Positions 3,198 to 29,476 of a DNA stretch of 32,756 nucleotides are shown here, in pieces. Under the pieces are notes generated by a model, which saw nothing but the letters and a program-made list of their open reading frames with translations, did not search any database and was not told the DNA's origin. Position numbers and translations under genes: made by a program. Source of the DNA: Catajapyx aquilonaris (taxonomy: Eukaryota); NCBI GenBank assembly GCA_000934665.2, contig JYFJ02004350.1:1-32756 (forward strand), in the 5' to 3' direction. Within the stretch, counting starts at the first letter, position 1. Every line of letters begins with the position of its first letter.

Positions 3198-6100
3198 ATG
3201 GCATTGCTGCCCATGAGAGTGAAGAAAGAAGAAGAGCTTGATGGAGAAGAGGAGGACATCACAGTGGATGAGGAGACTTGGAGGCTGCGGTTGAAGGAGG
3301 AGACCCCTTCTTGCTTTGATGGTGGCTCTGCTCTCATAGAAGACACGCTTCGTGAGGTAAAGGAGGAAGCAGGGGAGGAGGAGGAGGAGATGGTGGTGGC
3401 CATGCCTGGGGAGGTTGATGTTGAAGATGACCCTTTATCTGTTGGTTCTGGAAGGATGAGTGGGGTATGTCATCTGATTAAAATGTGAAATAATGTGACA
3501 GTATATTTTGAATATGCTGCAGTGATGTGAAGGATGATGTGTATAACTTGCATTTTCCTTACTCATTTACATACTTTAGGGGAAGGGAATGCTTAGCCCA
3601 GATGTGTTAGCCTTTGGTGACCAATATTCTTTCAGCCAGTGTTTAGTCATATTCTCCCATCTCCATCACCTTGAGCTATCATCCTTGTGCCAAAGCCTTA
3701 CTTCTGGTCTGTTGTACCCCGCCTCTCCTTTGAACTTTGACACTGATGGAATTGGAACTGTCAGCCCGCATTATACGTATTTGTTGCATGATGAATCATA
3801 ATTATGTGCGCAACTAGGGTTGTAAAAAAAGCCAGATATTTTGCCTGCCCGAAAAAAAACCTTTTGGGAAAAAATTGTTTTCCTCATAATATATTTACTT
3901 TTTTCCCAATGATTTGGGCTTTTTTTTTTTTTTGCACACTACCAAGTTCTTATTATTTCCCACTGTTCAGAAAAGTCAAATTAATTAATAGCTGAAATAA
4001 ATTAAGGAAAACGAACCACACTACATTTGATTCTGGATTTTTGGTGGAGGATAACCTGAAGGACTTCAGGAACCAATCACTGCATCAAAAGTGTTTTCGG
4101 TGGGAATATTTTGTCACTGTTTAGGCCAAAAAAGAGTCCATATTGCAGTGATTTGGGAGACTCTTTTGTTGTATACTTTGCTTCATTTCACTGGCTAAGA
4201 AGCCAATATTATAATACAGTATGATAGACGGCAGTCACAATAATGTACCCCATAAGTGTTTTATGAAAAACGCCTACACTGGTTGATGTTATGTCACATT
4301 ATATTTTTTTTACATTATTGATATTTCATATTTTTTGCTCCATTGTTTTCATGCCAAATCATATTGTTACTTGAAGATCACCAAAGACCAGTTGGCAATT
4401 TCAACTGGTTTTCTTGCTGCTTGGTTTCCTTTCATCTCCATGATCAAAATTTAGTCATCCAAAACGTTATATCCGTCCAGTTTATTGGCATTTGCCAGGT
4501 ATTTGCGTTAGATGAAAATGTTGAAATGGGCAGCAAAATGCATGATAATTATAACTGGCAAATAACCTGACAATCTCTTTGGATATTTGTTGATATAATT
4601 ACACATTACATGTAAAATTGGATTTGATGATTGAAACCATTTTAAAACAAGGGGACAGCAAAAGATAATGATGTATTTTGTTTTGGTCCTGCATAATTTA
4701 TGGATGAGCTAATATTGCAATTTTGTGGCTAGTTTCCTTAATCAGTGTGCAGTAATGCGTAATGCAGCATATGCCTATGGGAAGCAGAAAACTAGGGTAC
4801 TTGTTGCAAAATTGGTGATCTGGCTATAACAAACCTCAGTTATAACATAGTGTTTTTCCTCGGCCCCTTGAAGACTGTTATATCCAGATTCAACTGCACT
4901 AGATGTGGGCTGTCGAATGGTATCGTCATCATTATAGGAGTGCAGCAAGTCATCATAATATAATTGACGGCTTTTCGTGTGTTTGTCCAGGGTGAGATGC
5001 CAGTCAGATGCATCTTGTACCATGACCCTTTGCATGGCCATGAGAGTGGCAGACGTGTGCAGGGAGGGAGGATGTGCCACCTTTACTTTATCTTATACCT
5101 TGAGAGGGGCATTGTGTACTACATTCACAGTTGGGGACACAAGTATTTTTGGACAAGTTTTGGCAAGGGTGCACTAGTTGGAAATTTTAAGGTAAGTGCA
5201 TTAAAACCTTGACGCAGGTGATGGATATGTTCAAAATTATTCAACTGTTTCAAGTACATTCAGATGTGATGGTTGGGGAGGGGGCATGTGCTGCTCATTC
5301 CTCTGACACATACTGTTATTGTCTGTCTTATGAATATCTCAGGCTGTCGCACTGTGTGATGTAAGCGTATTACAAATGCTACAAGAGACTTTGCTATAAG
5401 GCGTGCCTTCCCAATAGCCAAAAGACATGTTGAAATCTTTACTACATCCACCCTCCATAATGGTAATTGATATGCTGCAATTCAATTTCCAGGAAATGCA
5501 AGAGGAGGATCAAGTCAAGAAGGAAATGATTACTAGGACCTGTGATAGCGGCAAGCCATTTGATTGCCAAGTGTGCCAGAAAAAGTTTTGGAATGCAAGT
5601 ACTTTGAAAATTCACATGCGAATTCATACAGGCGCGAAACCATTTAGTTGTGAAGTGTGCCAGAAAAATTTTTGTGTGTCAGGTAATTGGAAATGTCACA
5701 TGCAAATTCACACGGGAGAAAAACCATTTACTTGTGAGGTATGCCAGAAAAAGTTTCGCGAATCGAGTAAGTTGAAAGCCCACATGCGAATTCATACAGG
5801 TGAGAAACCACATCAGTGTCAGGTGTGCCAGAAACGATTTATTACATCAAGTGACTTGAAAAAGCACATGCGAATTCATACAGGAGAAAACCCATTTAGT
5901 TGTGAGATATGCCAGAAGGAGTATCGCCATTCAAATACGTTGAAATCCCACATGTCAATTCATACAGGCGAGAAACCACATCAGTGTCAGGTGTGCCAGA
6001 AACGGTTTATTACATCTGATTGTTTGAAAGGTCACATGCGCCATCATACAGGGGAGAAACCATTTCAGTGTGAGGTGTGCCAGAAGAAGTTTAGTCTGTC

Positions 6101-6969: not shown

Positions 6970-7190
6970 ATAACGGTTGTCGCTGCGCAGGATAGCGGCG
7001 ACTGTCGAGGAAGGAGTAGCGTTTAAGGCCTTCCTTCTCTGTTGTGGTGGCGATGGGAATGCGCCCTCATTTGCAAAAAAAAAAAAAAATCGAACCAAAG
7101 ATGGCCGACGAGGAGTGTCCGTCGTGAAGAGAAACGTGAGCAGCCTCCGTCGACTACTCTTCCCTGGTTGTGATCGTCGCCTGGAACTTG
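6970..7190 (+). promoter_or_regulatory. Unit 3 promoter cassette and putative non-coding exon 1
   Basis: TAGCGGCGACT (6993), GGAGTAGCGTTTAA, GGTGGCGATGGGAATGCGCC, AACCAAAGATGGCCGA (7093), donor CTTG|GTAGGT at 7191. Closely matches unit 2. Confidence 0.65.
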
Positions 7191-7394: not shown

Positions 7395-10300
7395 ATGGCA
7401 TTGGCCCCGAGAGTCAAGGAAGAAGAAGGGCTGGAAGGAGAAGACGCTGCTGGTGACGGAACAGTCACAGCGGAGGGTACCTGGCAGGTTCCCTTGAAGG
7501 AGGAGACCCCTTCATGCTTTGATGGTGGCTCTACTCTCACAGAAGACACTCTCCTCGAGATCAAGAAGGAGGAAGCGGAGGAGGAGGAGATGGTGGTGGC
7601 CATGTCTGGAGTGGTTGGAGGTGAGGATGACCCTTTGGCTGGTGATTCAGGAAGTATTATTGGGGTATGTCATCTGATTAAATTCTGAAATAACGTGACT
7701 ATATTTTCAGTATCATGCTGCAGTGATGTGATGGATGAGGTGTATAGCATGCATTTTCCTTATTCATATACACACTTTAGGGGAAGGGAATGCTTAGCCC
7801 AGGTGTGTTTTCCCTTTGGTGACAATATTCTTTCTGGCAGTGTTTAGTCCTTCTTTTTTTTAAACCCCGTGATAGAGCTCTTGGCCCTCTTAGGGGAAGG
7901 GGAGGTTCCCAAGGGAGGGCGCTCAAATTTTTTGTCATTTCTGACAATGTGAAATACACCAGACCTTTTCTGCTGGCCCCGGGCAGAGTAGGGAGTGCAA
8001 TTCTGCCCCGGCATGTCGGGTGAAAAGCGGAAAAAGACCCGGCCAAGCAGAGGTGACGGGGACGGGATTTGAACCCCGGCCTCCTGCTTGGCTGGCCAGC
8101 GGCGAAACCGCTAGACCACCATTGTTTAGTCCACTTTAGTCATATTCTCCCATCTCCACCCCCTTGAGCTATCATCCTTGTGCCCAAGCCTTACTTCTGG
8201 TCTGTTGTACCCCGCCTCTCCTTTGAACTTTGACACTGAACTGATGGAATTGGAACTGTCAGCCCGCATGATATGTGTTTGTTGCATGATGAATCATATG
8301 TATGCAACTAGGGTTGTAAAAAAGCCAGGTATTTTGACTGCCAGAAAAAAAAAACCTTTTGGGAAAAAAATTGCTTTCCTCATAATTATATTACTTTTTT
8401 TGTAATGTTTTGGGCTTTTTTTTGCACACTACCAAGTTCTTCTTATATCCCACTGTTCAGAAAAGTGAAATTATCAATATTAATATCAGAAACTAGCAGG
8501 TTACCTGGCGTTGCCCGGGTATGTTGGGGTGCTGGTAAAGGTAGGGGTACATAGACAGTATTTTAGGAAGTGTGTGTGTGTGTTTGTAAAAATTTCTCTT
8601 CCATACACGCGAAACTCGATATGTCTTAAAATAGGCCCTATAAGTTGCAATAAGCCAAAGTTTCTCACTATCTGTGATAGATTACCTGCTTGTCTTAATA
8701 GCGTATAGTCGACACAGATATTCTGATTGAATGTGTAAAAAGAGGAATGCGGATGGAGTTGGCCCAGGAAAAGACTGCACAGCCATGTGTTTTTTCCCTG
8801 CAATTTTGACCCCTTGACCCCCCCACCCCACTTCACACCCCTACCTCGTTCCATATATGTTTGCTCTGAAGAACTTTCGAAATGTAGCCTACATTGTTAA
8901 TTGTTAATAAGTTAATTGTTGAGGCCTGAGTAGTGAGAAGATTAGGGAATATGCGTGTTGCGGGAGTTAGGTTCATTTTTGGAAGCTGAAACATGCCGAG
9001 TTAAATTCCTTGAAAAATGTAACCCCCGATATGCTAATTTAAGGTGGTGTAGGAGCCTTCCCCTGGATTACTATAAGGGACAAACAAACTCACAAACTCA
9101 CAAACAAACTCATTTATAGATATAGATAAATAGAAGAACACGAACCACACTACATTTGATTCAGGATTTTTTTGGAGGATACCCAGAAGGACTCCAGGAA
9201 CCAATCACTGCATCAAAAGTGTTTTCAGTGGGAATATTTTGTCAATGTGTAGGCCAAAAAGAGTCCATATTGCAGTGATTTGGTAGAATCTTTTGTTATA
9301 CTTTGCTTTATTTCACTGGCTATAAAAAGCCAATATTATAATACAGTGTGATACAGGGCAGTCACAATAATGTACCCCATAAGAGTTTATGAAAAATGAC
9401 TACAGTTGGTTGATGCTATGTCACATATTATCCCAAAAAATATTGATATGATATATTTTTTGCTCCATTGTTTTCATGCCAGATCATATTGTTACTTGAA
9501 CATCATCAAAGGGCTGTTGGCAATTTCAACTTGTTTGCTTGCTGCTTGGTTTCCTTTCAGCTCCATGCTCAAAATTTAGTCAACCAAAACATTATATCTG
9601 TCCAGTTTATTGGCATTTGCCAGGTATTTTCTTTAGACGAGAGTGGCAGAAGTGTGCAGGGAGGGAGGATGTGCCTCCTTTACTTTACCTTATACCTTGA
9701 GAGGGGTATTGTATACTACATGCACAGTTGGGGACCCATGTATTTTTGGCCAAGTTTTAGTAAGGGGTTCACTAGTTGGAAATTTTAAGGTAAGCGGGTT
9801 AAAAACTTGACGCAGGTGATGGATATGTTCGAAATTATTCAACTGTTTCAAGTACATTCCAATGTGATGGCTAGGGAGGGGGAATGTGCTGCTCATTCCT
9901 TCAACACATACTGTTATTTTCTGTCATATGAAGATCTCAGGCAGTCGCACTAGTGTATTACAAATGATACAGGAGCCTTTGCTATAAGGATTCCCTTCCA
10001 AATGGCCAAAAGACATGTTCAAACTTTACTACATCCACCCTCCATAATGTTAATTGCTGCAATTCAATTTTCAGGAAATGCAAGAGGAGGATCAAGTCCT
10101 GAGGAAAATGATTACTAGGACCTGTGATAGAAGCAGGCCATTTGATTGCCAAGTGTGCCAGAAAAAGTTTCGGAAATCAGGTAATTTGAAAATGCACATG
10201 CGAATTCATACAGGCGAGAAACCATATCAATGTGAGGTGTGCCAGAAAACATTTGCGGAATCAAGTAAGTTGAAAAGACACACGCGAATTCATACAGGCG

Positions 10301-11337: not shown

Positions 11338-11564
11338 ATAGCGGATATCGCGAAGTAGCAGTGGTAGTAGCGGCGACTGCTGAGGTAGGAAAAGCGCTTA
11401 AACCCATCCTTCACGCTCAGGTGGCGATGGGAATGCACCTCAAAAGAAAAAAAAGAAACCGTTGAATTAAAGATGGCCGACCATGTCTGTCGGGAAGGCA
11501 GGAGGAGGGGTCGTGCGTCTTTAATTTCCTGACGATTTCAACGTGGATTCAAGCATATGGCAAG
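11338..11564 (+). promoter_or_regulatory. Unit 4 promoter cassette and putative non-coding exon 1
   Basis: GTAGCGGCGACT (11367), GGAAAAGCGCTTAA, GGTGGCGATGGGAATGCACC, AATTAAAGATGGCCGA (11465). Donor region CAAG|GTGGTAAC at ~11565. Confidence 0.65.
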
Positions 11565-12518: not shown

Positions 12519-14124
12519 ATGGACCTGCCCCTGAGAGTCAAGAAAGAAGAAACGCTTGATGGAGAAGATGAGGACATCTCAGTGGATGAGGAGGCTTGGA
12601 GGCTGCGGTTGAAGGAGGAGACCCCTTCTTGCTCTGATGATGGCTCTATTCTTATAGAAGACACTCTTCGTGAGATCAAGAATGAGGAAGCAGAGGAGGA
12701 GGAGGAGGAGGAGATGGTGGTGGACATGACCAAGGAGGTTGATGATGCAGATGACCCTTTAGGTGTTGGTTCTGGAAGGATTAGTGGGGTATGTAACCTG
12801 CTGAGAATCTGAAGTAAAGGTACAGTAGGTTAAGGGGCCCAAATTTCGACACCCTTACGTTGTTTTCCTCTTGTTAGAAAATGGATTGAACGCAGCAATG
12901 TAAGGAAACTGAATGTTAATACATTGAGCATTCACCTACTAGGTCCCGTAATGAATTTAAAAAAAATATATATAGGAAAAAGCACAAAATTGAAAAGGCG
13001 AAAAACACACATTTTTTCAGTTTCAAAGAAAGTATTCCTAATTTCGTCCCCTGCGTTTTAATGGGGGGAGGGAGGATGGGCCGCATTTATTTTATGTTAT
13101 ACCCATGCTTATACTGTACCTTGTATGAGAGGGGTATTGTGTCCAGTACTATGTGGACGGTCAGGGACCTAAGTATTTTTGCCAAGATTTCCCAGGGGTT
13201 CACTAGTTGTAAATTCTAAGGTAACAAAAAATCAACTTCTCAAGTATGATCAATCTATTCAAAATTATTCAACTGTTTCAAGAACATTCAGATGTGAGGG
13301 TTTGCAAGGTTCAGTGTCCTGCTCATTCCTCCAGCACTGTTATTTTCCGTCATATGATGATCTCAGGCAGTCACACGGTCAGTATGTGGCAGAGTTCTAC
13401 AAATGCTAAAAGAGGCTTTGCTATAAGGAGTGCCTTCCAAATGACCAAAACACACGTGGAAATATGTACTACATCGACCCTATATAATTGTACAGTAATT
13501 GATATGCTGCAATTCAATTTTCAGGAAATGCAAGAGAAAGATCATCAAGTCAGTGTGAAGAAAGCTGTCCTGAAGAAAAAGATCACCGGAACCTGTGATA
13601 GAAGAAAGCCATTTCAGTGCGAAGTGTGCCAGAAACTGTTGACTACAGCACATAATTTGAAAGTTCACATGTTAATTCATGTATGTGAGAAACCATATAG
13701 TTGTGAGGTATGCCAGAAAAAATTCAGTGAAGCAACGAAGTTGAAAAAGCCCATGCGAATTCATACAGGCGAGAAACCATATAGTTGTGAGGTGTGCCAG
13801 GAAAAATTTCGTGAATCAGGTTCGTTGAAAAAGCACATGCATATTCATACAGGCATTAAATCATTTCAGTGTGAGGTGTGCCAGAAGAAGTCTCGTGATT
13901 CAAATGGTTTGAAGGTGCACATGCGAATTCACACAGGCGAGAAACCATTTAGTTGTGAGGTGTGCCATAAGAAGTTTCGTGAATCAAGTAATGTGAAAAA
14001 GCACATGCGAATTCACACAGGCGAGAAGCCATTTAGTTGTGAGGTGTGCCAGGAAAAGTTTCGGACAACATGGCACTTGGAAAAACACATGCGAATTCAT
14101 ACAGGAGAGAGACCATTTACATAA
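12519..14124 (+). CDS. C2H2 zinc-finger protein, unit 4: acidic domain + 6 fingers, one degenerate (289 aa); exons 12519-12788, 13525-14124
   Basis: acag|gaccATG; donor GGG|GTATGT at 12789; acceptor tttcAG|GAA at 13524; phase 0. Finger 2 has His->Pro (LKKPMRIH); the stop follows a TGERPFT linker. Confidence 0.87.
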
Positions 14125-14468: not shown

Positions 14469-14713
14469 CGGCTAGCGAATATTCACATAGTAGCAGTGTT
14501 AGTAGCGGCGACTGGCGAGTAAGGAATAGCGCTTAAACCCATCCTTCATTCTCAGGTGGCGATGGGAATGCACCCACAAAAAAAAAGAAAAAGAAAAAAG
14601 CCGTTGAATCAAAGATGGCCGACCACGTCTCTTGTGAATAGACACGAGGAGGAGGAGGGTCCTGTGGCTTTAATTTCCTGACGATTTCAACTTGGATTGG
14701 AGCATATAGCAAG
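14469..14713 (+). promoter_or_regulatory. Unit 5 promoter cassette and putative non-coding exon 1
   Basis: GTAGCGGCGACT (14502), GGAATAGCGCTTAA, GGTGGCGATGGGAATGCACC, AATCAAAGATGGCCGA (14607). Donor CAAG|GTGGGC at 14714, acceptor TTGCAG ending 14827. Confidence 0.7.
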
Positions 14714-14831: not shown

Positions 14832-15904
14832 ATGTCTTTGATCCTGAGGATAAAGAGGGAGGAAGAGGCGGAGGAGGACATCACAGTGGATGAGGAGAGT
14901 TGGAGGCTAAGGTTGAAGGAGACCGCTCCTTCCTTTGAGGGTGGCTCCACTTTAATGGAAGACTCACTCTGTGAGATCAAGAAAGAGGAAGTGGAGGAGG
15001 AAGGACAAGATGAGGGTATCACAACAGAGGAGACTTGGAGGTTGCGGTTGAAGGAGGAGACCCCTTCTTGCTTTGATGGTGGCTCCACTCTCATAGAAGA
15101 CACCCTTCGTGAGATCAAGGAGGAGGAAGTGGCGGAGGAGATGATGGTGGCCATATCTGAGGAGGTTGGAGATGAAGATGACCCTTTGGGAGTTGGTTCA
15201 GGAAGGAGTAGTGGGGTATGTGAGCTGCTGAAAATCTGACGTAATCTTACAGCATATTGACGCCGGGGGGGGGAAATGCCCTGCTCGTTGCTCCAACACA
15301 ACCATGCTGTTATTTTCTGTCATATGAAGATCTCAGGCATTTACACTGTGGGATGTCTGTGAGCTAGAAATGTTACTAGAGACATTGATAAGAGGTCCCG
15401 TCCAAATGACCAAAAGACATGTGGAAATCTTTACGGCATCCACCCTGAATAATGGAAATTGATATGCTGCAATTCACTTTTCAGGAGGTGCAAGAGGAAT
15501 GTGACGAAGTTTGTGTGACAAGGAAAGGAGTCCGGAAGAAAAAGATCACTACACGTCCTGATGGAAGCAAGCGATTTGATTGCCAGGTCTGCCAGAAGTC
15601 ACTTGCCACCAGATATGGTTTGGAACTTCACATGCGAAACCATACTGGAGAGAAGCCCTTTTCCTGCCATATCTGCGAGGAGAAATTTACATTGATACGC
15701 CAATTGGAAAGCCACATGCGAAATCACACTGTAGAGAGACCATATTCATGTCAGGTCTGCCAGAAAAACTTTTTTGCATCACCTGACTTGAAATGTCACA
15801 TGCGAACTCATGAAAGAAAAAATGCGTTGCAATGTGAGGTGTGCCAGAGAAAGTTCCATTTTGCAGGTCCTTTAAAACGTCACATGAGAATTCACTTACA
15901 ATGA
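14832..15904 (+). CDS. C2H2 zinc-finger protein, unit 5: duplicated acidic module + 4 fingers (267 aa); exons 14832-15215, 15485-15904
   Basis: gcag|ggccATG; donor GGG|GTATGT at 15216; acceptor tttcAG|GAG at 15484; phase 0; 4 C2H2 repeats. Confidence 0.88.

Positions 15905-16398: not shown

Positions 16399-16470
<72 letters not shown>
16074..16470 (+). mobile_element. tRNA-derived SINE (family B) with (TTA)n tail and 15-bp TSD
   Basis: A-box-like TGGCGCTGCGGT (16086), B-box GGTTCGATCCC (16129), (TTA)n at ~16400-16470. Perfect direct repeats TATATGAATGATGCA at 16059-16073 and 16471-16485. Confidence 0.92.

Positions 16471-16473
<3 letters not shown>
16400..16473. repeat. (TTA)n microsatellite (SINE tail)
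   Basis: Uninterrupted tta repeats over ~70 bp. Confidence 0.95.
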
Positions 16474-16684: not shown

Positions 16685-16929
16685 TGTAATGGCTAGCTGC
16701 TGTCGCTGAGCAGGACAAGTAGCGGCGACTCCTATGGTAGGAATAGCGCTTAAACACGTCCTTCACGCTTAGGTGGCGATAGGAATGCACCTCAAAAGAA
16801 AAAATAAATAAAATAAAAAAACACTCTAATCAAAGATGGCCGACCATGTCTCTTGTGAAGACACGAGGAGGAGGGTCCTGCGGCTTTAATTTCCTGACGA
16901 TTTCAACTTGGATTCAAGCATATGGCAAG
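16685..16929 (+). promoter_or_regulatory. Unit 6 promoter cassette and putative non-coding exon 1
   Basis: GTAGCGGCGACT (16719), GGAATAGCGCTTAA, GGTGGCGATAGGAATGCACC, AATCAAAGATGGCCGA (16828). Donor CAAG|GTGGGC at 16930, acceptor TTGCAG ending 17051. Confidence 0.7.
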
Positions 16930-17054: not shown

Positions 17055-18276
17055 ATGTCTTTGATCCTGAGGATAAAGAAGGAGGAAGAGGAGGACATCA
17101 CAGTGGATGAGGAGACGTGGAGGCTGCCCTTGAAGGAGGAGACCCCTTCTTGCTTTGATGGTGGCTCCACTCTCATAAAGAAGGAGGAGGCAGAGGAGGA
17201 CGTCACAACGGAAGAGACCTGGCAGTTGCCTTTGAATGAGGAGACCCCTTCTTGCTTTGATGATGGTGGCTCTACTCTCATAGAAGACACGCTTTGTGAG
17301 GTCAAGAAGGAGGAAGTGGAGGAGGAGAAGATGGTGGTGGCCATCCCTAGGGTCCGGGTGGTTGGAGATGAGGACGACCCTTTAGGAGTTGGTTCAGGAA
17401 GGATTAGTGGGGTATGTCATCTGTTGAAAATCTGACATAATCCTACAGCACATTTAAACCTTGTTGTACTTCCCCTATTGGCATGTGCGGTATGGTATCT
17501 ATATATTGCTATTCTGCTCCTACACAGAAACAGCTATGTCCATCCGTGTGCATAGGAATGATCCTTTCCACTTGTCAGTAATTGGTCGGCGGTTGCCTTT
17601 TGTGCAACCGGCTTCAGGTGCTTTGCTTTATACTGTACTTTCAATTATGTTCATTTTAATTATTGTTGTAGCATGGAGAATTTTGGAACTGTTCAAACTA
17701 TTTCTTTGATATTATGGACAACCCGGGGTATGGGTACCTTCCAAATGATCGAAAGACATGTGGAAATCGTTGTGTCATCCACCCTGAATAATGGTCATTG
17801 ATATGATGCAATTCCCTTTTCAGGCAGTGCAAGAGAAAGGTCATCAAGTCAGTGTGAAGAAAGCAGTCCAGAAGAAAAAGATCTGTACACCTCGTGATAC
17901 AAAGACGCGATTTGACTGCCAAGTGTGCCATAAATCACTTGGCACCAGAACTGGTTTGGTTATGCACATGCGTAACCATAGAGGAGAGAAGCCCTTTTCC
18001 TGCCAATGCTGCGAGAGGAAATTTATTGTGAGAAGTCATTTGAAAAGTCACATGAGAGTGCACACGACAGAGAGACCATATTCATGTCACATGTGCCAGA
18101 AAAGGTTTTTTGCATCACATGAGTTGAAAATTCATATGCGAAGTCATACTGAAAAGAGAAAGTGCGGGGTGTGCCAGAAAGAGTTTCACAAAGAGTATGC
18201 ATTGGAATATCACAAACGAAGTCACACACAACCGATTAATTCATCATTGAATTCATTCATTAAAATACTAAAATAA
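17055..18276 (+). CDS. C2H2 zinc-finger protein, unit 6: partly duplicated acidic module + 4 fingers (269 aa); exons 17055-17411, 17824-18276
   Basis: gcag|gacATG; donor GGG|GTATGT at 17412; acceptor tttcAG|GCA at 17823; phase 0; 4 C2H2 repeats. Confidence 0.88.
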
Positions 18277-18323: not shown

Positions 18324-18564
18324 TGTAATGACTAGCGGCTATCGCTGAGCTGGACAAGTAGCGGCGACTCTTGGCGTGGCAATCGCGCTTAGACGCATCC
18401 TTCTCTCTCAGGTGGCGATGGGAATGCACCCACAAATGAATGGGAAGAAAAAAAAGAAAAAGAAATCAAAGATGGCCGAAGAAGAACTTCTGTTGTGAAG
18501 ACACGAGGAGGGTCCTGCGACTTTAACTTCCCGAAGATTTCAACTTGGATTCAGGCATAGCAAG
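18324..18564 (+). promoter_or_regulatory. Unit 7 promoter cassette and putative non-coding exon 1
   Basis: Nearly identical to unit 1 (811-1064): TAGCGGCTATC, GTAGCGGCGACT (18358), GGTGGCGATGGGAATGCACC, AATCAAAGATGGCCGA (18464). Donor at 18565, acceptor ending 18672. Confidence 0.7.
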
Positions 18565-18676
18565 GTGGGCACTACTTGGTTGACCTTTGCCCGCCACACC
18601 ACAGAGAAAATGTTCCTCCTGTGCAGCTGATTTGTGTGCTGCTTCATGTGCTGATGTTGTGGTGCATTGCAGGGCC

Positions 18677-19508
18677 ATGTCGTGGGTCCTGAGGGTCAAG
18701 AAGGAGGAAGGGCTGGAAGAAGATGAGGAGGTGGCAGTGGAGGAGATGGCGCAGGTGCACGTGAAAGAGGAGATCCTACTGCCCTTTGAAACTGACGAGA
18801 CAATGGCTGTCACACCCGTGGAGGTCAAAGAGGAGCCACCGGAGGAGGAGGAGATGGTGGCCGTGCCTGGTGCTGTTGAAGAGGGAGGTGACCCTTTGGC
18901 CGGAGGTTCTGGAAGTACTAGTGGGGTATGTCGTCTGCTGAACATCTGATATAACGTTACAGGATATGTACATCATGCTGTACTGTACAGCACCTTTCAA
19001 GTGACCAAACGAAATGTGGAAATTTTTACAGCATCCACCCTGAATGATTGAGGTTGATGTGCTGAAATTCACTTTTCAGGCATTGCAAGTGAAAGGTCAT
19101 CATGTCAGTATGAAGAAAGCGGTCAAGAAGAAAAAGATCACTAGGCCTCGTGATGGAAGCCAGCGGTTTGACTGCCAAGTGTGCCAGAAATCACTTGGCA
19201 CCAAAGGTGGTTTGGAACTTCACATGCGAAACCATACGGGAGAGAAGCCCTTTTCCTGCCAATTCTGCGAGAAGAAATTTATTGTGAGAAATCATTTGAA
19301 TAGCCACATGAGAAATCACACTTCAGAAAGACCACATTCTTGTCATATGTGCCAGAAAAAGTATTTTACGTCGCATGAGTTGAAAATTCACATACGAACT
19401 CATTCAAGAAAAAAAACATTTCAATGTGATGTGTGCCAGAAGGAGTTTCAAAAAGAGTATGCATTGGAATATCACAGGCGAATTCATATGCAACCTATTC
19501 ATAATTGA
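18677..19508 (+). CDS. C2H2 zinc-finger protein, unit 7: acidic domain + 4 fingers (225 aa); exons 18677-18925, 19080-19508
   Basis: gcag|ggccATG; donor GGG|GTATGT at 18926; acceptor tttcAG|GCA at 19079; 154-bp phase-0 intron; 4 C2H2 repeats. Confidence 0.9.
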
Positions 19509-19924
19509 ATTCATAATCGATTTCATTCATTGGCAATAACCGCCCAACATAGGGTCAGGGTGAGCCATAAAGAATTTTATTGTACGTCTATCATATTAAA
19601 ATCCTTGCGGTGTTTGACCGAGGCCTCTGATTGGTACGCCCCCATATTGTTGCCACCACCGCTTCCTATTGGCCCCCAATCCACTGTGACTGTGACGTAT
19701 TGTTATCATGACGCCTCCGATTGGCCCCAGTTCCGAGCATGCACAATAATGGGTGGAAGAACGCCACATCCAGTAGCTTGCTGGACGTCAACGAGCACAC
19801 ATCTTACCTGTGGACTCCCCTCTACCCTTCCACCTTCTCCACCCACGTCGTCATGGTGACCGGACAACAGTGAGGAAGGATTAGTCGAATGCAACGTTGT
19901 AAACAAACTGGAGGGAGGTCAATT

Positions 19925-20344
19925 CAGTAAACGGTTTCCCTCCAGAGAGGAGCCATTTAGTAAATGGGTTCCCTCCGGAGAGGAGCCATTCTAGTGTATG
20001 GTTTCCCTCCAGAGAGGAGCCATTTTAGTATATGGTTTTCCTTCGGAGAGACACCATACACTATATGGGTTTCCCTCCGGAGGGAAACACTTTTACTAAA
20101 TGGCTCCTCTCCGTCGGAGTACATGGTTTTTCTCCAGAGAGGAGCCATTTCAGTAATGAGTTTCTCTTGGGAGAGACCGGGGAGAGACGCCCTCTCCGGA
20201 GAGAAAGCCATACACTGGAAGTGCGTCTCTCCGGAGGGAAACTAATTTACTGGATTGGCTCCTCTCCGGAGGGAAAACCATGTACTCTGAAGGATAGGCG
20301 CAATTTCAGTAAATGGGTCCCCTCCGGAGGGAAACCGTTTACCG
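19925..20344. mobile_element. Foldback/MITE-like element with ~40-bp TIRs, built from ~33-bp palindromic subrepeats
   Basis: Left end CAGTAAACGGTTTCCCTCCAGAGAGGAGCCATTTAGTAAA matches the reverse complement of the right end at 34/40 positions. About 11 internal copies of GGTTTCCCTCCGGAGAGGAGCC-like units in both orientations. No TSD found. Confidence 0.7.
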
Positions 20345-20720
20345 TTTTTTAAATATTTGCGGCGTTTTGAAGCGGAATTGAGTTTAGCTGTAAATGGTAG
20401 GAATGCACTTCACGACGGTGGGGATCTGTGTTCAAAATTGGGAAACTCTACCTCTTGCTCTACCTACAGCAGAACTTGAGTTAGAAGGAAGAAAAAAAAG
20501 TAGCAACAACAAGATGTTGGATCATTGTTGAAATCTATGCTATGGTATTACTTAGGGGCTGCCACCCCTAATATATAATTATTTTTGTCGCAAACAATTC
20601 GGTCTCGTGTCATTTAAAATATTCCATCCTGATTCAGAAACCTTTTCAGTTTGGGATGTGCGAGCCGAAATATAATTTATGACAAGTCATTTACAAACCC
20701 ACATTAAAACTCATATTGCA

Positions 20721-20810
20721 GAGACACCATTTTAGTTGCAAATATTGCCAGAAGAGAATTACTGTAGTCAGGCAAGTAGTACGAAGGGTACACCTGCGGT
20801 TGCACCTCGG
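20721..20810 (+). pseudogene. Orphan degenerate C2H2 finger
   Basis: Reads FSCKYCQKRITVVRQVVRRVHLRLH. The DNA tttagttgcaaatattgccagaag is identical to the start of the last finger of unit 1. Confidence 0.6.
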
Positions 20811-21074
20811 TCGTCATGATGCATTGAAATTGCCATCCAGTTGGCCTCCAAAGACCCTTGTTCTCACAGTGACCCTCGACCAGAGAAGTCGGGATTCCTA
20901 ATTGAAGGCATCTGATTTCCCTCTGGCACGGAAAGATAAGCCGGCCGGTTTTATTTGTCCCTTTCGTCCCACGCTGGAGACGTTTGTCCGCCTTATACCG
21001 GCCACCGCTTGCGCATGTATAATAAATAATATGCTTCGCGATTGATAATCACCAGTTGTTGACCAGTTCCTGTA

Positions 21075-21300
21075 AGTCGCCGCTACGCGATTTATGTCCT
21101 AATAGACCACGAAAAAAAAAGGGAAGATCATCAAAGTTAATGAAATTTAGAAGCTAATCTAGAGATAAATTCTGGTGATCATTGAATAATTATCTAGGGA
21201 TTTCTAGAAATAATAAGATTTAGGGATTTGTGTTCTCTAATGACTGGCAACACTTCCGCCGCATAAAAAAAAAGAAAAGAGAAATCAAAGATGGCCGCCG
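21075..21300 (+). promoter_or_regulatory. Putative promoter of the Harbinger-derived gene, sharing motifs with the zinc-finger cassette
   Basis: AGTCGCCGCTAC at 21075-21086 is the reverse complement of GTAGCGGCGACT. An A-tract precedes AATCAAAGATGGCCG at 21283-21297. Confidence 0.6.
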
Positions 21301-21418
21301 ACTGAAGCTTGTGGTTCCACGCTTGTTCTTTTGATTCGATCTTGAAGAAGTGTAGAGGCGTAGAGAGGACATAGCCTCGGAGACGGAGATCGAGAGAGGG
21401 AGGGAAGGAGGGAGCGCG

Positions 21419-24353
21419 ATGGCTGGACGTGAGCTGGAGTTGCAGCGGCTGCAGGTTGATCTCCTCCTAGTGTACTTGTACTACCGGAGGAGGGTGCGGC
21501 AGAGGCATGCTCTGGCACTACAGGCCCAGCAAGAGGCCCAGCAGGAGGCCCAACAGGAGGCCCAGCAGGAGGCCCAACAGGAGGCCCAACAGGCCCAGCA
21601 AGAGGCCCAGCAGGCCCAGCAACAGGCCCAGCAGGCCCAGCAACAGGCCCAGCAGGCCCAGCAAGAGGCCCCTCGGAAGCATCGACGGAAGCGGAGATAT
21701 GGAGTGTCAGAACTGTGGCAGAAGAGGAAGGAGCTGGGTCAGTTCCACACTCATGTAAGTAATTTTTTCAATACCTCGCACATACTAGATATCTGCAAGA
21801 ATTTCCTGCCCAGGCAAGGGCAACTATATTGTACCGGTATGTGTTGTAACGTGTAATTGTTGTAACCAGTTGATAGCCAACTGTGTTTGGAATGTTTAGA
21901 GCCAGGTTTGTTCTTGAGGAGCCGAACCATGAAGTCGGCTGTGTCCTCAGCTCTCACTTGTATGATACCACTTGCCTGGAGAGCTTAATGATACATCTGC
22001 TAGTTCAATGGACAGTTTATCAAAGTACTACAATGGTTTTTTGTATATTTCAGATTGAAATCAGGAGCAGGGGAGATGATGATACCTATTTCCGGGAATT
22101 CCTGCGCATGTCACCAGAAGCTTTTGACAGATTAACAGCACTCGTCCATGATAGCTTGAAGAAATATCCGACATCCGGGGAAGCGCTATCTCCTGCACAC
22201 AGGCTGGCAATAACATTGAGGTATGTATATTGACCACAAATCTTCAATTCTGCTCAAAAAAACTCAAACATGAATTACCAATAATTTATAATTACTGATA
22301 AAATGCCAATATCCTGCTCGTGCAATTCAGGAATCTGCTACAGATGTAAACATTCCCAACTACGAGGGAAAGTAGCAAGGCACTCTGAGTACATGACAAG
22401 TAGCACTTGCACTCTGGAAACAAACACTTGACAAGTGCATAAATATGGTGGGGGGACCAGTATTAAATATTAGCGTCTGCTTCATGTGACATGCCTGATG
22501 TAATATAAGTGGTGATAAGTTATATTTCAAGTGCATGATCTACCCTTACAGATATTTAGCTACTGGTGATAGCTATTATAGTGTGGGTTCTGCTTTCTGC
22601 ATTGGAGTAACAACTGTGCATGTAATAATCAAGGAGACCTGTGACGCCCTCTGGAAGATTTTGCAGCCCATATATCTTAAGGTAAGCGGGTTACATGACT
22701 TGAAAGATGGGGAGGGATTGTTGTACGTGAGTACATTGTGGCCCCAACATCATTGCACAATGCTTCTCAAATTCATATTTGTAGAATCCTCAAACTGAAG
22801 ACTGGGCCAAGGTGGCCAAAAATTATGGAGAGAGGTGGCAGTACCCGTTATGCTGCGGTGCCGTGGAGGGAAAGCATGTTGTTATTGAACAGCCCAACCT
22901 CAAGGTTTGTACTTTTAATGTACACTTTCATCCATTTTGTAACATGTGAACAGCTACCATTAACTTCTGCTTTGTATCTTCAGAAATGCGACTCAATTGT
23001 TTTGATGGCAGTAGTGGGCCCAGACTACAAATTTGTCTGTGTAGATATAGGAAATTATGGCTCCAGGGCACATGGGCATGTGTTTGGGGCCTCATACCTG
23101 GGGAAGAGACTGGCCGAGGGAAACCTGGACTTCCCCCAACCCACCACCCTCCCTCGAACAGACACTGTGGTTCCCCATGTCTTTGTAGGAGACACTGCCT
23201 TTCAACTGAAGCCGAATGTTATGAGACCCTACCCTCCAGAAGATCTCACATCCAAGAAGCGGGTTTTTAACTACAGATTGAGTCGAGCAAGGTAGGTATT
23301 AGCAGGACTTGAAACAGGAATCTCACTCTGAACTGAATAGCCTCAAATTTGTCAGTCCCCACCAGTCACACACTTATTGCATGATTTTTCTACTAGGATT
23401 GCATTTCCTTGCACAACATTGTTTTACAATGCCTACAGCATTAAGGGCGGCATTAACATAATATGCTTTAAAACCGAACATAGATGGTGATCAAGGCACA
23501 GGGACATTAGAAACGTCAGACTTCACATTAAGCATGACCTACTGCTACACAGTGTATTTTCATTGTTGTGAACCACTACTATTAAACCTATCAGACCTAC
23601 TCAACTTTGGGGTGGGTGCACCAACTCCCTCTGCGTTACCCAGTTAGTTGTTGAATTTACCGTGGCAACCTGTGTTGATGTAGAGGCACTGAACAGGCCA
23701 GGAGTACGTTGCTGAACTCAGCGGCTACCGCAGCAGAGGTAAACAAGTCGTTGCTAAACTCAGCTGTGCTGACAGCGGCTCGCAGCCGCTGAGTTTAGCA
23801 ACATCCTCTAGTTTTCTTACACCCAGCCCTAAACATAGAGGTGCGTAGGTCCCTTGGTGTGTCAGTTTACAACAGATATGGATTTGTGACATATTATGTT
23901 ATCCAGAACAGACGGAGACCTTGACTCGCCTAGACATGCGAGTGACTTCAATGTAACTTAAGCCCATGCTTTCCTTTCAGACGCTGCAGTGAAAATGCTT
24001 TTGGGATTCTCTCACAGAAGTGGAGAGTGTTCCAAAAGCCTATGCCCCTGTGCGTAGACAATGTCAGCAAGGTGACACAAGCCTGCGTGGTGCTCCACAA
24101 TTTCCTACTGGAGACAGAAGGTCAGCCTGGAGCAGTCCAGATTTATTGCCCACCAGGGTTCACCGACTTTCTGGACCCCAATGGTGGCATCCAAGAAGGC
24201 ACCTTCAGGCAGGAAACTAGTCAGTGTTTGGGCCTGGTTGACTTGTTGCCCACATCAGCCAAGAACTTTCACCATGCTGCTGGGTGCGTGCGACGTGTCT
24301 ATGCGGACTACTTTTCATCTGCACAGGGCGAGGTTCCCTGGCAGTGGAAATGA
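21419..24353 (+). CDS. PIF/Harbinger transposase-derived protein (HARBI1-like, DDE_Tnp_4-type fold), 477 aa; exons 21419-21754, 22054-22220, 22552-22681, 22785-22904, 22984-23291, 23981-24353
   Basis: Five GT-AG introns with compatible phases (0,2,0,0,2) give 1434 nt with no internal stop. Harbinger motifs: FLRMSPEAFDRL, RLAITLRYLATG, WQYPLCCGAVEGKHV, SIVLMAVV, FVGDTAFQL, FNYRLSRARRCSENAFGIL, ACVVLHNF. Confidence 0.9.
21521..21670 (+). repeat. Coding minisatellite (9/12-bp units) encoding (QQEA/QQA/QQQA)n
   Basis: caggcccagcaagaggcccagcaggaggcccaacag... in frame in exon 1 of the Harbinger-derived gene. Confidence 0.9.
23594..23851. mobile_element. Degenerate MITE in intron 5 of the Harbinger-derived gene
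   Basis: Outer inverted repeats GACCTAC...TTTGGGGTGGGTGCA / TACACCCAGCCCTAAA...GTAGGTC. Inner inverted repeats GTTGCTGAACTCAGCGGCT (23708-23726) / AGCCGCTGAGTTTAGCAAC (23784-23802), one mismatch. Confidence 0.55.
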
Positions 24354-25079
24354 CCAGGTGTCGATAAGGACTAGTAGGAAAAGTGCAAGGGGGAAGCAAC
24401 ATTCACTTAGCAGTAGAATATTGACTTTTCCTGGCCATGTCTTGAAAGTTGTTTTTAACAAAGTTGTACACATAACAATGTTATTTATTTAATTAGTGAG
24501 CTTTGTCCTGTCATAATATGCATTTGTACTTTTTAAAGTCAGCAGAAGTTGGAAACCAACAAATGGTCCAGACCTTTGTGTTATTTTTCAAACACACTGA
24601 CATAACACTAATAAATATTTGAAGTAACATCTCAGTAGTTCATTTACCTGAATTATTGTAAAATGGGAATGGATTGATGGCCATCTACTCGGAACAACAT
24701 CTTGAACACTAGACAACTGTGGTAAGGACAAGGAGATGGAAAGTCACAATATTTTCATGAGGTTTAGCCCAATTCAGAAGTTACTTTCACAGATCGGCAA
24801 CATTACGCTGACTTTAATCACCGGAATTCAGACACCATCTTCTTCACCCAAACCATCTTAAGGTCCAAGACAAAGGATTGTCAATAATAAGGGAATCCTA
24901 CACTCTGTGAAACTTCCTCCACGAGGATTAGGCATGAGCAATCATCATAGTGGATTATCGCACATGAAGTGCTGTTGATGGCAATGTTTGGCATGTACTC
25001 GTGAGTGGCAGTGGCCAAGAGAGAGGAAGCCCAAATGCTGGATCATTTTGGGCAGCTAAAGAATGAGCAGAGATGTTGG

Positions 25080-25210
25080 CCGCTATCGTGTGTTAGCGGC
25101 GACTCCGGAGACAGGGGGAGTAGCGCATAAGGACGTCCCTCGTTCTGGCGGTGGTAGGAATGCACCCCCCGGGGTCTCCAAAGGGGAAAGGGAAAAAGAT
25201 GGCTGGCCTA
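25080..25210 (+). promoter_or_regulatory. Unit 8 promoter cassette (diverged)
   Basis: GCTATCG, TAGCGGCGACT (25094), GGAGTAGCGCATAA, GGTGGTAGGAATGCACC and AAAGATGGCTGG (~25195), in the same order as in the other units. Confidence 0.6.
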
Positions 25211-25494
25211 GAGCGCACGTCCCGAAGGAGGATCCGGTGACTTGGTTGGACTCATTTCCACGTCCCCTTCTTGGCATTCACTGGGTTAGGTCGACTGGAA
25301 CACTCCCTGGTCTCCTTATAAGAGGTACTGTGCCACCCTTAAAAAAGACTGTCATTTGCTCATCTAGTTTCGCTTCATTTCATGCCCTCCTTTGCTCACA
25401 TCTCTGATATATGCTACTCCTCAGCAGCTGCCATGATTGAGGATGCTACACTTGACACGATGGCATGACCGCCACTCTTTGTGTTTGCAGGACC

Positions 25495-28011
25495 ATGCCT
25501 TTGATCCTGAGGATAAAGAAGGAAGGGGAAGTGAAGGAGGAGGACATCACAGTGGATGAGGAGAGCTGGAGGCTGCCCTTGAAGGAGGAGACCCCTTTTT
25601 GCTTTGATGGTGGCTCTACTCTTACAGAAGACATGCTTCCTGAGATCAAGAAGGAGGAAGCGGAGGATGAGGAAGAGATGGTTGTGGGCATGTCCAGGGT
25701 GGTTGAAGATGAAGATGACCCATTGGCAGTGCGTTCTGAAGTGATTAGTCAGGTATGTACAATATGCTGAAAATGCAGTATCATTTTACACAAAAAGTTA
25801 CACCAAATCATCAATCCAAGTCAAACACTCATGCTTGGAAGATGTTTTAGGATTTCTTAATCACTCACTTGGCTCCCCTTGAAACATCCTCGTGATCTTT
25901 GACACTAACTGTTTAATATCACATTCATACCGAAGCAGGTTGTGGTGGAGGGGTTTAGCCATCCGACTGCTAATCGAGAGGTCCTGGGTTCGATTCCCGG
26001 GTCGTGGTTTTCTATGGTTTCCCACGGCCCTCCCAGGAAAATTCTGGGGTCCCTTCCGTAAACAATAGGCCACAGCCGCTTCCTCCCTTTTCTATCCTTG
26101 GCCCATCAATGGGGAGGTGCTGCGTCGGCAAGGGTCTCTAACCCGCACTACCTTGGGGGTTGTTTTGCAATCTGGCCCTCTGGGGGACTGCACACAACCC
26201 ACACATAAGGCACTTGCACCCTTGTCCCCTCCTCATAAATCCCTATCCTGATCCCTGCACCCGAGAGAAAAATGCGAAAGAAAAATTCGTAAGAAAAATT
26301 GTGGTATTCCACCGACCTATTGCTCCAAGCACGGGGTAGCAAATTTTAAAAAATCATAATAATATCACTTTCATAAAATAACCGGACTTTTCNTATTATT
26401 ATTATTATTATTTATTATTTTTTTCGAAATTCCAAAAACCTCAAAATTGTCATAATCCCAGTTTTTAAAGTGCAGACATGAAATGCACCAAAAATATGGA
26501 AAATTACATGTTAGCATAACTAGATTGGCAACACTACCTCTGCCGTCATGTGTAAGACGACCGTAACTCACAAACTAGTACGGGTGAAAGTTGCATGCAT
26601 ATGCCCTGCAAGGGGGTATGTCCTGCTGATTCCTCCAACACATTCTGTTCTTTTCTGCAATAATTATTCTCATTACACAAGTTTGTTGTGGGGAAGCAAA
26701 GCATAATGGATACCCCGTGACAGGCCTCCTTGGGCCTTTTAGGGGATCATCTTTTAATTCACAGACTTTAATCATTTGCCTGTACTGTGATTGTTGATTT
26801 TTTTAAAAGTGGATAGGAAATGGGAGAGCCCCAAGAAAACCCATGCAAACATGGAGAGAACCCATCGAAACTCTATCCACATAAGTATCCTCCATCCGAC
26901 CCGGGGATCGAACTCGGGACCTGAGCGGTGGAAGGCTGTGGCACTGACCACTACGCCACGGTGTCGCCCTTACTCACTTTGAGTCTTACCTCTGGGTAAT
27001 TATGGCTTGAATCAAGACAGAGACAGAAGTAAACCGGGATTCTATTAAATGCTTTAATCTCAAGATACCAAAAATGGAATATTACCCGATGTCTTAGCTG
27101 CCCTCCATTAGAGTAAACTGTGGCATCCATCATGTGTGAGTATGAGATCTGTGTTGTAATAATTAATGGGTCTCTTCCCCTTACTAAGTGAAGCATAAAG
27201 AAGTATGCCCTTCTGTGTAGTGATGATGACTCCCTTCGTATGTCTGCTTCCATGGTGACCTTTTCGTTAGAAGCTCTTTCCTCAGAATGTGTGGGTGTAG
27301 GAAGTGGTGAAAAATGGCAGGAAAAGAAAGTATTGCGCAAAGTCCCATTACCTTACAATATGAAGTTATGAGGCAGATTCACCATGAGATGTCTCTGCAG
27401 TACAAATTCTGCAAAACACATTGTAATAAGGGTTGCATTCTCAATTACTAGAAGACATGTGGACATATTTACAGTATCCATCGAGCATAATGGACATTGA
27501 TATGCTGCAATTCACTTTTCAGGAAGTGCAAGAGGAAGGGGACGAAGAAGAAAAGATAAGCAAACCTGATGATAAAAGCAAGCGATTCGATTGCCAAGTG
27601 TGCCAGAAATCACTTGGCACCAAACGTGGTTTTAAACTTCACATGCGAATCCACGCTGGAGACAAGCCCTATGCCTGTCACTTCTGTGAGAAGAGATTTG
27701 TTCTGTCAAGTCATTTGCAAAGCCACGTGAGATACCACACTGCTGAGGAACTATATTGTTGTCACATATGCCAGAAAAAGTTTATTGTTGCTCGTGGTTT
27801 GAAAAAGCACATGCATATTCATACAGGAGAGAAACCATTTAAATGTGAGGTGTGCCAGAAAGGGTTTGCTAGAGCGTATACTTTGAAAATTCACTCCAGC
27901 ATTCATACAGGGGAGAAACCATTTCAATGTGAGGCGTGCCAGAGCAGATTTTATGCAAAGCATCTGTTGAAAAAGCACATGCTAATTCATACAGGAGGTA
28001 GACCCTTTTAA
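25495..28011 (+). CDS. C2H2 zinc-finger protein, unit 8: acidic domain + 5 intact fingers (248 aa); exons 25495-25752, 27523-28011
   Basis: gcag|gaccATG; donor CAG|GTATGT at 25753; acceptor tttcAG|GAA at 27522; phase 0. An N at 26393 in the intron may mark an assembly join. Confidence 0.82.
25935..26150 (+). mobile_element. tRNA-derived SINE (family C)
   Basis: A-box-like TGGTGGAGGGG (25943) and B-box GGTTCGATTCC (25987), followed by a body (ggtttcccacggccctcccaggaaa...ggccacagccgcttcctccc) that resembles conserved invertebrate SINE cores. The 3' end is uncertain. Confidence 0.7.
26795..26969 (-). mobile_element. tRNA-derived SINE (family D) with V-domain-like core
   Basis: Minus strand: A-box TGGCGTAGTGG, B-box GAGTTCGATCC, then gttctctccatgtttgcatgggttttcttggggctctcccatttcctatccac, which resembles the V-SINE central domain. 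Confidence 0.7.
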
Positions 28012-28754: not shown

Positions 28755-28905
28755 TTAGCTGCTATCGCAAAGCACTACTAGTAGCGGCGACTAGTGAGGA
28801 GGAATAGCGCTTAACACCATCCTTCATCTTTTGTGGCGATGGGAACGCACCTCATTTGCATAAAAAAAAAGAAAAAAAAGAAAATGGAAATCAAAGATGG
28901 CCGAC
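28755..28905 (+). promoter_or_regulatory. Unit 9 promoter cassette
   Basis: GTAGCGGCGACT (28781), GGAATAGCGCTTAA, GTGGCGATGGGAACGCACC, ATTTGCAT, A-tract, AATCAAAGATGGCCGA (28889). Confidence 0.7.
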
Positions 28906-29051
28906 TGAACGATCTTCTGTTCTAATCGGTTTTGATTGTGGGTTTGATTCGCTAGAAGTGTCCAGAGAGAGTGAATCGAACTCGTTTCAACCCGTCTCAT
29001 TCCCTAGAATTCGTTTGGTCGCCTGGAATTATTGGAAGTGTTCCTTGCACC

Positions 29052-29432
29052 ATGTCTTTGATGCTGAAGATAAAGAAGGAAGAGGAAGAGGAAGATGGAA
29101 CAATCACAGTGGAGGAGACCTGGCAATTGCGGTTGAAGGAGGAGACCCCTTCTTGCTTCGATGATGACTCTAATCTCATGGAAGACACTCTCCGTGAGAT
29201 CAAGAAGGAGGCAGCGGAGGAGGACATCACAGTGGACGAGGAGAGTTGGAGGCTGCGGTTGAAGGAGGAGACACCATCTTCCTTTGATGGTGGCTCTACT
29301 CTCGTGGAAGACACCCTCCATGAGATCAAGAAGGAGGAAGTGGAGGAGGAGAAGGAGATGGTGGTGGCCACATCTAGAGAGGACGAAGAGGAAGATGACC
29401 CATTAGCAGGAGATTCTGGAAGGACTAGTGGG
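29052..29432 (+). CDS. Unit 9 acidic-domain exon (127 aa, duplicated module); partial gene, finger exon not within the window
   Basis: MSLMLKIKKEEE...DDPLAGDSGRTSG with donor GGG|GTATGC at 29433. No finger exon seen through 32756. Confidence 0.75.
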
Positions 29433-29476
29433 GTATGCCGTCTGATGAAAATCTGAAGTAATGTTACAGTATATTT

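Follow-up and report, generated by a model that had tools for sequence, protein, structure and literature searches.

On the plus strand of a contig of Catajapyx aquilonaris (JYFJ02004350.1, assembly GCA_000934665.2), at 21419-24353 of the 32,756-nt stretch that was analyzed as a whole (the window), lies a six-exon gene derived from a Harbinger transposase. It is best read, with reasonable though far from full confidence, as a host gene that encodes a catalytically degenerate, domesticated, Harbinger-derived nuclear protein. By sequence, the product is a member of the PIF/Harbinger superfamily (DDE_Tnp_4, PF13359), and the gene would have started out as the transposase gene of a chelicerate-type PIF/Harbinger element, with membership in a mobile element since lost. 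Transcription is predicted to start just past a core promoter element of the type found at the neighboring zinc-finger genes, after which five introns would be spliced out and a 477-aa protein made. That protein keeps a helix-turn-helix (HTH) region, most of the RNase-H-like domain, a conserved C terminus and a basic cluster like a nuclear localization signal (NLS), and has lost conserved residues mainly around the first catalytic aspartate (Asp to Glu, deletion of an eight-residue loop, and SD to AH). The host presumably retains it for a noncatalytic job; by analogy with ALP1, HDP1 and insect PIF-like genes, this would most likely be that of a nuclear scaffold or of a DNA-associated subunit of a chromatin or transcription complex.

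Gene model, transcript and promoter

The six exons, joined both by hand and by script, give 1434 nt, that is, 477 codons plus TGA, and all five introns (299, 331, 103, 79 and 689 nt) have GT..AG borders. A preliminary description of this DNA had proposed six exons with an uninterrupted 477-aa frame in the same orientation as the finger genes, and the rebuilt model, the alignment with homologues and the plus-strand position of all nine zinc-finger units bear this out. From aa ~86 to 477 the spliced protein is collinear, with no large gaps, with whole Harbinger homologues of ~420 aa from ticks, a scorpion, insects and frogs (39 to 47% identity). Because of this end-to-end alignment, the gene model appears right in detail, including the exon 1/2 joint, the one joint that lacks contig support.

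Two public runs were compared over 20400-25400, a DNA run (X1) and a run of unrecorded kind and low depth (X5). Contigs of X5 skip introns 2, 3, 4 and 5 precisely at the modeled borders with 0 mismatches, and the splice-junction check proposed in the preliminary description thus supports four of the five introns (2 to 5); none of these joints occurs in X1. The intron 1 joint is not among the listed X5 joints, and X5 cover is near zero at 21736-22069 and zero in introns 2 and 5. The X5 contigs begin at 21307 and extend to 24606, just ahead of an AATAAA at 24610. Since intron-skipping contigs are present in X5 and absent from X1, X5 appears to be RNA derived and the gene to be transcribed and spliced.

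Upstream of the gene, a sequence typical of the zinc-finger units was found. The 14-mer ATCAAAGATGGCCG, with up to two mismatches, occurs nine times in the window, always on the plus strand, against 0.13 expected; eight copies lie upstream of units 1 to 7 and 9, and the ninth, at 21284-21297, is ahead of the Harbinger gene, whose ATG follows 122 nt and whose first X5 contig follows ~10 nt downstream. When the promoter blocks of the nine units (~140 nt each) were made into an nhmmer profile, it recovered these nine blocks (75 to 130 bits) and one further place only, 21264-21301 (plus strand; 15.5 bits, E = 1.8e-4), which consists of an A tract plus AATCAAAGATGGCCG. When gaps are allowed, 21266-21357 resembles 28872-28967 of unit 9 at 77 of 83 positions; the upstream two-thirds of the promoter block are not recognizably kept at the Harbinger gene. 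On these sequence matches, the most likely driver of the gene is a core promoter of the zinc-finger type, which would explain expression without a transposon promoter and would leave room for coregulation with the array.

The exons, all on the plus strand, divide the protein as follows. Exon 1 (21419-21754; aa 1-112) encodes a Leu-rich N terminus, a Q/A/E repeat and the basic cluster RKHRRKRR, and exon 2 (22054-22220; aa 113-168) encodes the first part of the HTH region, with an X5 contig running from 22068 over the joint 22220/22552. Exon 3 (22552-22681) is HTH_Tnp_4-like and has X5 joints at both ends. Exon 4 (22785-22904) holds GAVEGKH, with Glu (GAG) at the position of the first catalytic Asp; exon 5 (22984-23291) encodes the DDE_Tnp_4 core, with AH for SD and the second Asp kept (VFVGDTAF); and exon 6 (23981-24353), joined to it in X5 at 23291/23981, encodes the retained catalytic Glu (RRCSENAFGIL), an LHNF motif and the end GEVPWQWK, followed by TGA. 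The 5' untranslated region covers at least 21307-21418 (X5 contig 21307-21539, 0 mismatches; no ATG by eye), and the 3' untranslated region covers 24354-24615, with AATAAA at 24610-24615.

In Pfam, exon 5 matched DDE_Tnp_4 (E = 3.1e-9, 37.1 bits; cut-off, 24.8), and exon 6 matched the end of DDE_Tnp_4 (E = 2.2e-5, 24.6 bits) and Plant_tran (22.5 bits; cut-off, 22). Exon 3 alone gave a weak match to HTH_Tnp_4 (E = 0.013, 15.5 bits; cut-off, 27), and the HTH region aligns well with the homologues; exons 2 and 4 gave no Pfam match, and exon 1 gave low-complexity noise only. Within the first ~85 residues, a Leu-rich start as in the relatives is followed by a ~50-residue QQEA/QQA repeat (21520-21671, plus strand; units of 12, 21 and 33 nt by Tandem Repeats Finder). 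This repeat is an insertion missing from all 36 aligned homologues, with which the N terminus and the basic cluster do align. The RKHRRKRR cluster is common to the family and, read by eye, looks like a nuclear import signal.

Lesions of the catalytic core and nearest relatives

The preliminary description had called the transposase intact, and at the catalytic core this does not hold. In a census of 238 homologues of 340 to 520 aa, the first catalytic residue was D in 225 and E in 2, and the window protein has E (GAVEGKH); the GAG codon was confirmed by a DNA contig of X1 (22201-22997, 0 mismatches). The second catalytic residue (D in 231 of 238) and the third (E in 229 of 238) are kept, giving an E-D-E triad and not the canonical D-D-E. 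At the conserved SD aspartate (D in 230 of 238) the window protein reads AH. An N[YFH]K loop motif follows the first Asp in 214 of the 238 homologues, and the window protein is without the loop: eight residues of the GSxYFNYK loop are missing exactly at the exon 4/5 joint, where they are left out with intron 4 (22905-22983, plus strand), and an X5 contig confirms this joint (22904/22984). The frame of exon 4 stays open into the intron (22785-22949). Read through, intron 4 gives VCTFNVH..., perhaps a relic of YFNYK, and a GT that lies 15 nt farther on may once have served as the donor.

The losses are regional. When the alignment is reduced to the 66 columns with ≥85% identity across 236 other homologues, 58 are kept in the window protein, and seven of the eight misses fall within aa 225-281; outside that segment, 51 of 52 conserved columns are kept. 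The HTH region, the second Asp, the Glu helix and the C-terminal GEVPWQWK are retained, with the loss centered on the first catalytic Asp. In the rice element Ping, the change D295A lowered excision ~150-fold (PMC2836001). The change tested there was to Ala and not to Glu, and the window protein is presumed to be unable to cut DNA.

Relatives were sought with exon 5 among longer proteins (best match, 57%), with exon 6 among 1.84 billion representatives (2006 matches at E ≤ 0.001; best, 49%) and by full-length comparison with the proteins P0121 and P0272. No relative more than 48% identical over the full length was found in the protein searches, which included the 1.84 billion representatives and three word-index searches. 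Nearest were P0272 (47.5% over 404 aa) and P0121 (44.7% over 414 aa), both single-member Logan clusters from contigs of 2451 and 2068 nt, respectively; contigs as short as these would be intron free and RNA-like if the genes are built like that of the window. A careful 48-row tree joins the window protein to P0272 and P0121 in one clade (ultrafast bootstrap, 98; SH-like approximate likelihood ratio test [SH-aLRT], 93), on which a quick tree agrees (SH-aLRT, 96). Scorpion and soft-tick proteins are the sister groups of this clade, and all lie in a 28-row clade (100/99) whose named members are from ticks and scorpions.

The NYK loop motif is absent in all three members of the small clade. Further lesions are private (SD to SN in P0272 and the second Asp to Gly in P0121), and of the conserved residues that have been lost, seven of nine in P0272 and five of ten in P0121 fall within aa 241-281. 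All three have whole frames at the end of long branches (0.54 to 0.69 changes per site); in a substitution-only simulation, the probability that the window frame stays open was 0.11 at 3%, 0.03 at 5% and 0.0035 at 10% nucleotide change. The simplest account is that an ancestor shared by the window protein, P0272 and P0121 already had a looser constraint on catalysis, and that selection would have kept the proteins for something else; it loses weight should the three turn out to be paralogues or dead copies within a single genome.

Multicopy tick and scorpion proteins annotated as ALP1-like or uncharacterized, such as P0015 of Dermacentor silvarum, P0275 of Ornithodoros turicata and P0389 of Centruroides vittatus, belong to the same subfamily (the 28-row clade), are 43 to 47% identical to the window protein over ~400 aa and have the same length apart from the N-terminal repeat. 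In contrast to the window protein, D-D-E, SD and the NYK loop are all present in them, and many are represented by several near-identical members, as transposon copies would be. A search by sequence for solved structures, with P0015 as the query, gave none. Noncanonical triads were also seen elsewhere in the family. A group of tick proteins (P0332, which represents 26 sequences, P0317, P0444 and P0451) has G at the first Asp and MNHK or LNHK in the loop, and P0324 of Anopheles darlingi, which we take to be perhaps one of the published mosquito PIF-like genes, has the triad E-N-D. Judged by these residues, the tick group and P0324 are possible further domestications.

Transposon hallmarks, variants and alternative readings

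Terminal inverted repeats (TIRs) with a TWA-type target site duplication (TSD), reported as absent in the preliminary description, were not found here either. The repeat search over 18500-27500 gave 36 pairs, and none of the 25 best brackets the gene; a scan of the flank 19510-21420 against 24354-25200 with 12-mers of up to one mismatch gave 7 pairs, compared with 1 to 10 in ten shuffles, none of them with a TWA duplication. Because there are no TIRs near the gene, the locus appears unable to move itself, and the best reading is that the gene is no longer part of a mobile element. The reported lack of a Myb/SANT/MADF partner frame also stands: matches to Myb, SANT, MADF or THAP were found in 0 of 181 stop-to-stop frames of at least 60 aa in the whole window and in 0 of 94 frames of 30 to 59 aa within 19384-25556, a search that a partner made of very short exons would escape. 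The family matches among the window frames were to C2H2 fingers (8 frames) and DDE_Tnp_4 (2 frames) only.

In X1, depth was flat at 41 over introns 2 to 4 and exons 3 and 4 and was 70 to 126 over exons 2, 5 and 6; contig depth does not equal copy number, and a young family with many copies would be expected to look different. Across intron 5 and the larger part of exon 6 (23971 to ~24190), the sole X1 contigs differ by 3 to 5% from the window, and for exons 2 and 5 extra contigs that are 90 to 95% alike stand beside an identical one. Our reading is that the locus is present in few copies and that the variants are alleles or paralogues. Compared with the X1 variants, exon 2 has 6 synonymous and 2 nonsynonymous codons, exon 5 has 2 and 1, and exon 6 has 3 and 10; the sole nonsynonymous change of exon 5, G263D, restores the family consensus. 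The crude ratio of nonsynonymous to synonymous differences (pN/pS) was ~0.35 (13 nonsynonymous and 11 synonymous codons; binomial P = 0.012), a count that takes in only the best-supported listed differences and leaves 22 more outside it. The X1 individual also lacks 82 nt at 21099-21180, upstream of the promoter element, and has 18 other letters in place of 69 nt at 23894-23962 in intron 5. Intron 5 contains in addition a hairpin (23702-23808) with 25-nt arms that are 88% complementary; this is a repeated element, over which X1 depth is raised to 124-193.

The claim that this is a host gene stands in part. In its favor are the core lesions, the clade with lesions in the same region, the spliced contigs and the zinc-finger-type promoter, and several observations weigh against it. 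The DNA run holds versions that are 90 to 95% alike over exons 2, 5 and 6, and a second X1 contig is without 2 nt at 24241, which would shift the last ~37 codons; it follows from these variants and the deletion that the family is not clearly single copy or that a broken allele segregates. Exon 6 taken alone is about neutral compared with its X1 variant. Support for expression comes from the one low-depth run of unrecorded kind, and transposase genes carried by transposable elements are likewise spliced and expressed. The promoter match is weak beyond the 38-nt core (15.5 bits), Asp to Glu is a conservative change with the second Asp and the Glu retained, and P0272 and P0121 could be paralogues or dead transposable element copies and not orthologues.

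Several of these observations would also be expected of an immobilized and slowly decaying Harbinger copy that has lost its ends and its Myb gene, is transcribed only because it landed downstream of a zinc-finger-type promoter, retains its open frame as a leftover and has no host function, an explanation that we regard as a serious if clearly less probable one. Catalytic lesions are the expected product of decay, and the 2-nt deletion, the other X1 versions at least 90% alike, the excess of nonsynonymous codons in exon 6, the tandem-repeat expansion of exon 1, which looks like unconstrained slippage, and the failure to find an orthologue closer than 48% even among 1.84 billion representatives all point the same way. 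However, the frame of 477 codons is open, for which the simulated neutral survival at 5% change is low; the losses are clustered in aa 225-281, with conserved columns elsewhere kept all but one; two clade mates show this regional clustering too and have open frames at the end of long branches; and exon 2 has three times as many synonymous as nonsynonymous codons.

That the gene encodes a Harbinger-derived effector or scaffold brought to DNA by the variable zinc-finger proteins of the array through their acidic N-terminal domains, in place of a lost Myb partner, a form of the two-component idea of the preliminary description, is quite improbable. The gene shares the strand of the array and lies between units 7 and 8, the core promoter element common to it and the nine units would allow coregulation, and no Myb frame was found in the window; yet anything inserted into a tandem array would have such neighbors, the protein could do without a partner given its own basic NLS-like cluster and HTH region, and the Harbinger-derived pairs described in PMC9710019 use Myb or MADF partners. 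Drawn from neighborhood, orientation and the shared core element, such a partnership is pure speculation with very little chance of being right, and just as small is the chance of a modular system in which a dead Harbinger-fold subunit, coregulated with the array, would be aimed at many DNA targets by interchangeable C2H2 specificity subunits. A still active transposase, autonomous or of a two-locus system, with Glu replacing the first Asp in metal binding and with the Myb partner and ends elsewhere, is highly unlikely, since, for all that E, D and E are all acidic, that the HTH region, second Asp, Glu helix and C terminus are conserved and that related copies exist in X1, Glu at the first catalytic position is very rare among the homologues, the GSxYFNYK loop is spliced from the mRNA, the SD aspartate is His and no TIRs lie near the gene.

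A domesticated, catalytically degenerate protein would have known parallels. Like HARBI1, the window gene is derived from a Harbinger transposase; HARBI1 keeps the DDE triad, whereas the core of the window protein is degenerate, and no partner was found in the window. ALP1 reportedly works with the Myb-derived ALP2. Unlike the window gene, ALP1 and HDP1 are of a plant lineage and represent an independent event, the lesions of the window protein being E-D-E, the loop deletion and SD to AH; they are immobile and have one or two copies, in which the window gene may resemble them. Arabidopsis ALP1, an accessory subunit of Polycomb repressive complex 2, has DGA for DDE, and the window protein is like it in its derivation from the Harbinger nuclease, its noncanonical triad and the proposed noncatalytic role in a chromatin complex (PMC4671723). 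HARBI1 is described as needing the Myb-like NAIF1 for nuclear entry (PMC9710019). The repeated domestication of Harbinger transposases is well documented for vertebrates (HARBI1), plants (ALP1 and HDP1) and insects (DPLG, APLG, LPLG and BPLG) (PMC9710019, PMC4671723), and the criteria used include synteny in distant species, purifying selection, no TIR or TSD and no related copies (PMC9710019). At the window gene we found an intact frame, expression and no TIR or TSD. Its closest counterparts in build are BPLG1 and BPLG2 of cockroaches and LPLG1 of Lepidoptera, which, as described in PMC9710019, are likewise Harbinger-derived, spliced frames of ~380 to 480 aa with no TIR or TSD and no adjacent MADF or Myb gene. 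Those genes were shown there to be single copy and syntenic over >100 million years, with a ratio of nonsynonymous to synonymous substitution rates of 0.1 to 0.25 (Markova et al. 2022, PMC9710019). The window gene differs from them in lying in the chelicerate-type branch of the family and inside a zinc-finger array.

As in tetrapod KRAB-transposase fusions, a transposase coding sequence is found near a large, fast-evolving zinc-finger family, and recruitment there is proposed (Cosby et al., bioRxiv 10.1101/2020.05.07.082677). [quoted passage not shown] The word Harbinger has 0 occurrences in the text of Cosby et al., and a full-text literature search found no published case of domestication from the tick/scorpion-type Harbinger branch. 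The locus adds a domestication candidate from this branch, with a regional loss around the first catalytic Asp that is common to two relatives, and suggests a plausible route of recruitment, that of insertion downstream of a core promoter element belonging to a zinc-finger family amplified in tandem. If true, it would be a tidy example of a gene array lending regulation to a newcomer and would open no long-standing question.

Zinc-finger units and neighboring repeats

In each zinc-finger unit, always on the plus strand, the first coding exon is acidic and a finger exon comes after it. The ATGs of the acidic exons of units 1 to 9 are at 1177, 3198, 7395, 12519, 14832, 17055, 18677, 25495 and 29052, and the exons themselves extend over 3198-3485, 7395-7685, 12519-12809, 14832-15236, 17055-17432, 18677-18946, 25495-25767 and 29052-29453, with that of the first unit running from 1177 onward. 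The acidic domain is made up of repeats like DITVDEE(S/T)WRLxLKEETPSCFDGGSTL, the number of which varies by unit (tandem repeats at 14892-15139 and 17076-17287). It gave no Pfam match, and a protein atlas searched with the unit 9 exon gave weak leads only (score 0.90, below usual recognition), which were not used.

The unit promoter blocks are at 845-997, 2855-2989, 6992-7129, 11366-11497, 14501-14638, 16719-16860, 18358-18500, 25092-25227 and 28780-28923. Over its ~140 nt, a block reads TAGCGGCGACT ... GGTGGCGATGGGAATGCACCC, an A tract and then AATCAAAGATGGCCGAC; its GCCATCTT core, as we take it, resembles a YY1/Pho-type site. In most units a short 5' exon comes after the block, then a ~90-nt intron, and the acceptor TTGCAG stands right before the ATG. 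Two other origins of the element ahead of the Harbinger gene were ruled out. One is that the promoter of unit 8 was lost to the Harbinger gene, which would then lie in the first intron of unit 8; against this, a block of its own (75 bits), a diverged copy, precedes unit 8 at 25092-25227. The other is that the element is part of the high-copy repeat at 20385-20535, with which only a short GGTAGGAATGCAC stretch is alike.

Upstream of the Harbinger gene, summed X1 contig depth over 20400-20566 reaches 22,833, compared with ~41 nearby, and the segment recurs in several X5 contigs that run into other sequence; with its internal A run it looks like a short interspersed element (SINE)-type element. 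At 19922-20342 lies a block of nested 34- and 68-nt tandem and inverted repeats, with 38-nt terminal arms (19927-19964 and 20305-20342) that are 87% complementary; it has no coding match and is like a miniature inverted-repeat transposable element. In the intron of unit 8, ARAGORN found a tRNA-like fold with an undetermined anticodon at 25919-26008; Rfam gave no match in the window, this fold included, and it is probably a repeat relic. The sole N of the window is at 26393, and a perfect (ATT)24.7 microsatellite occupies 16400-16473.

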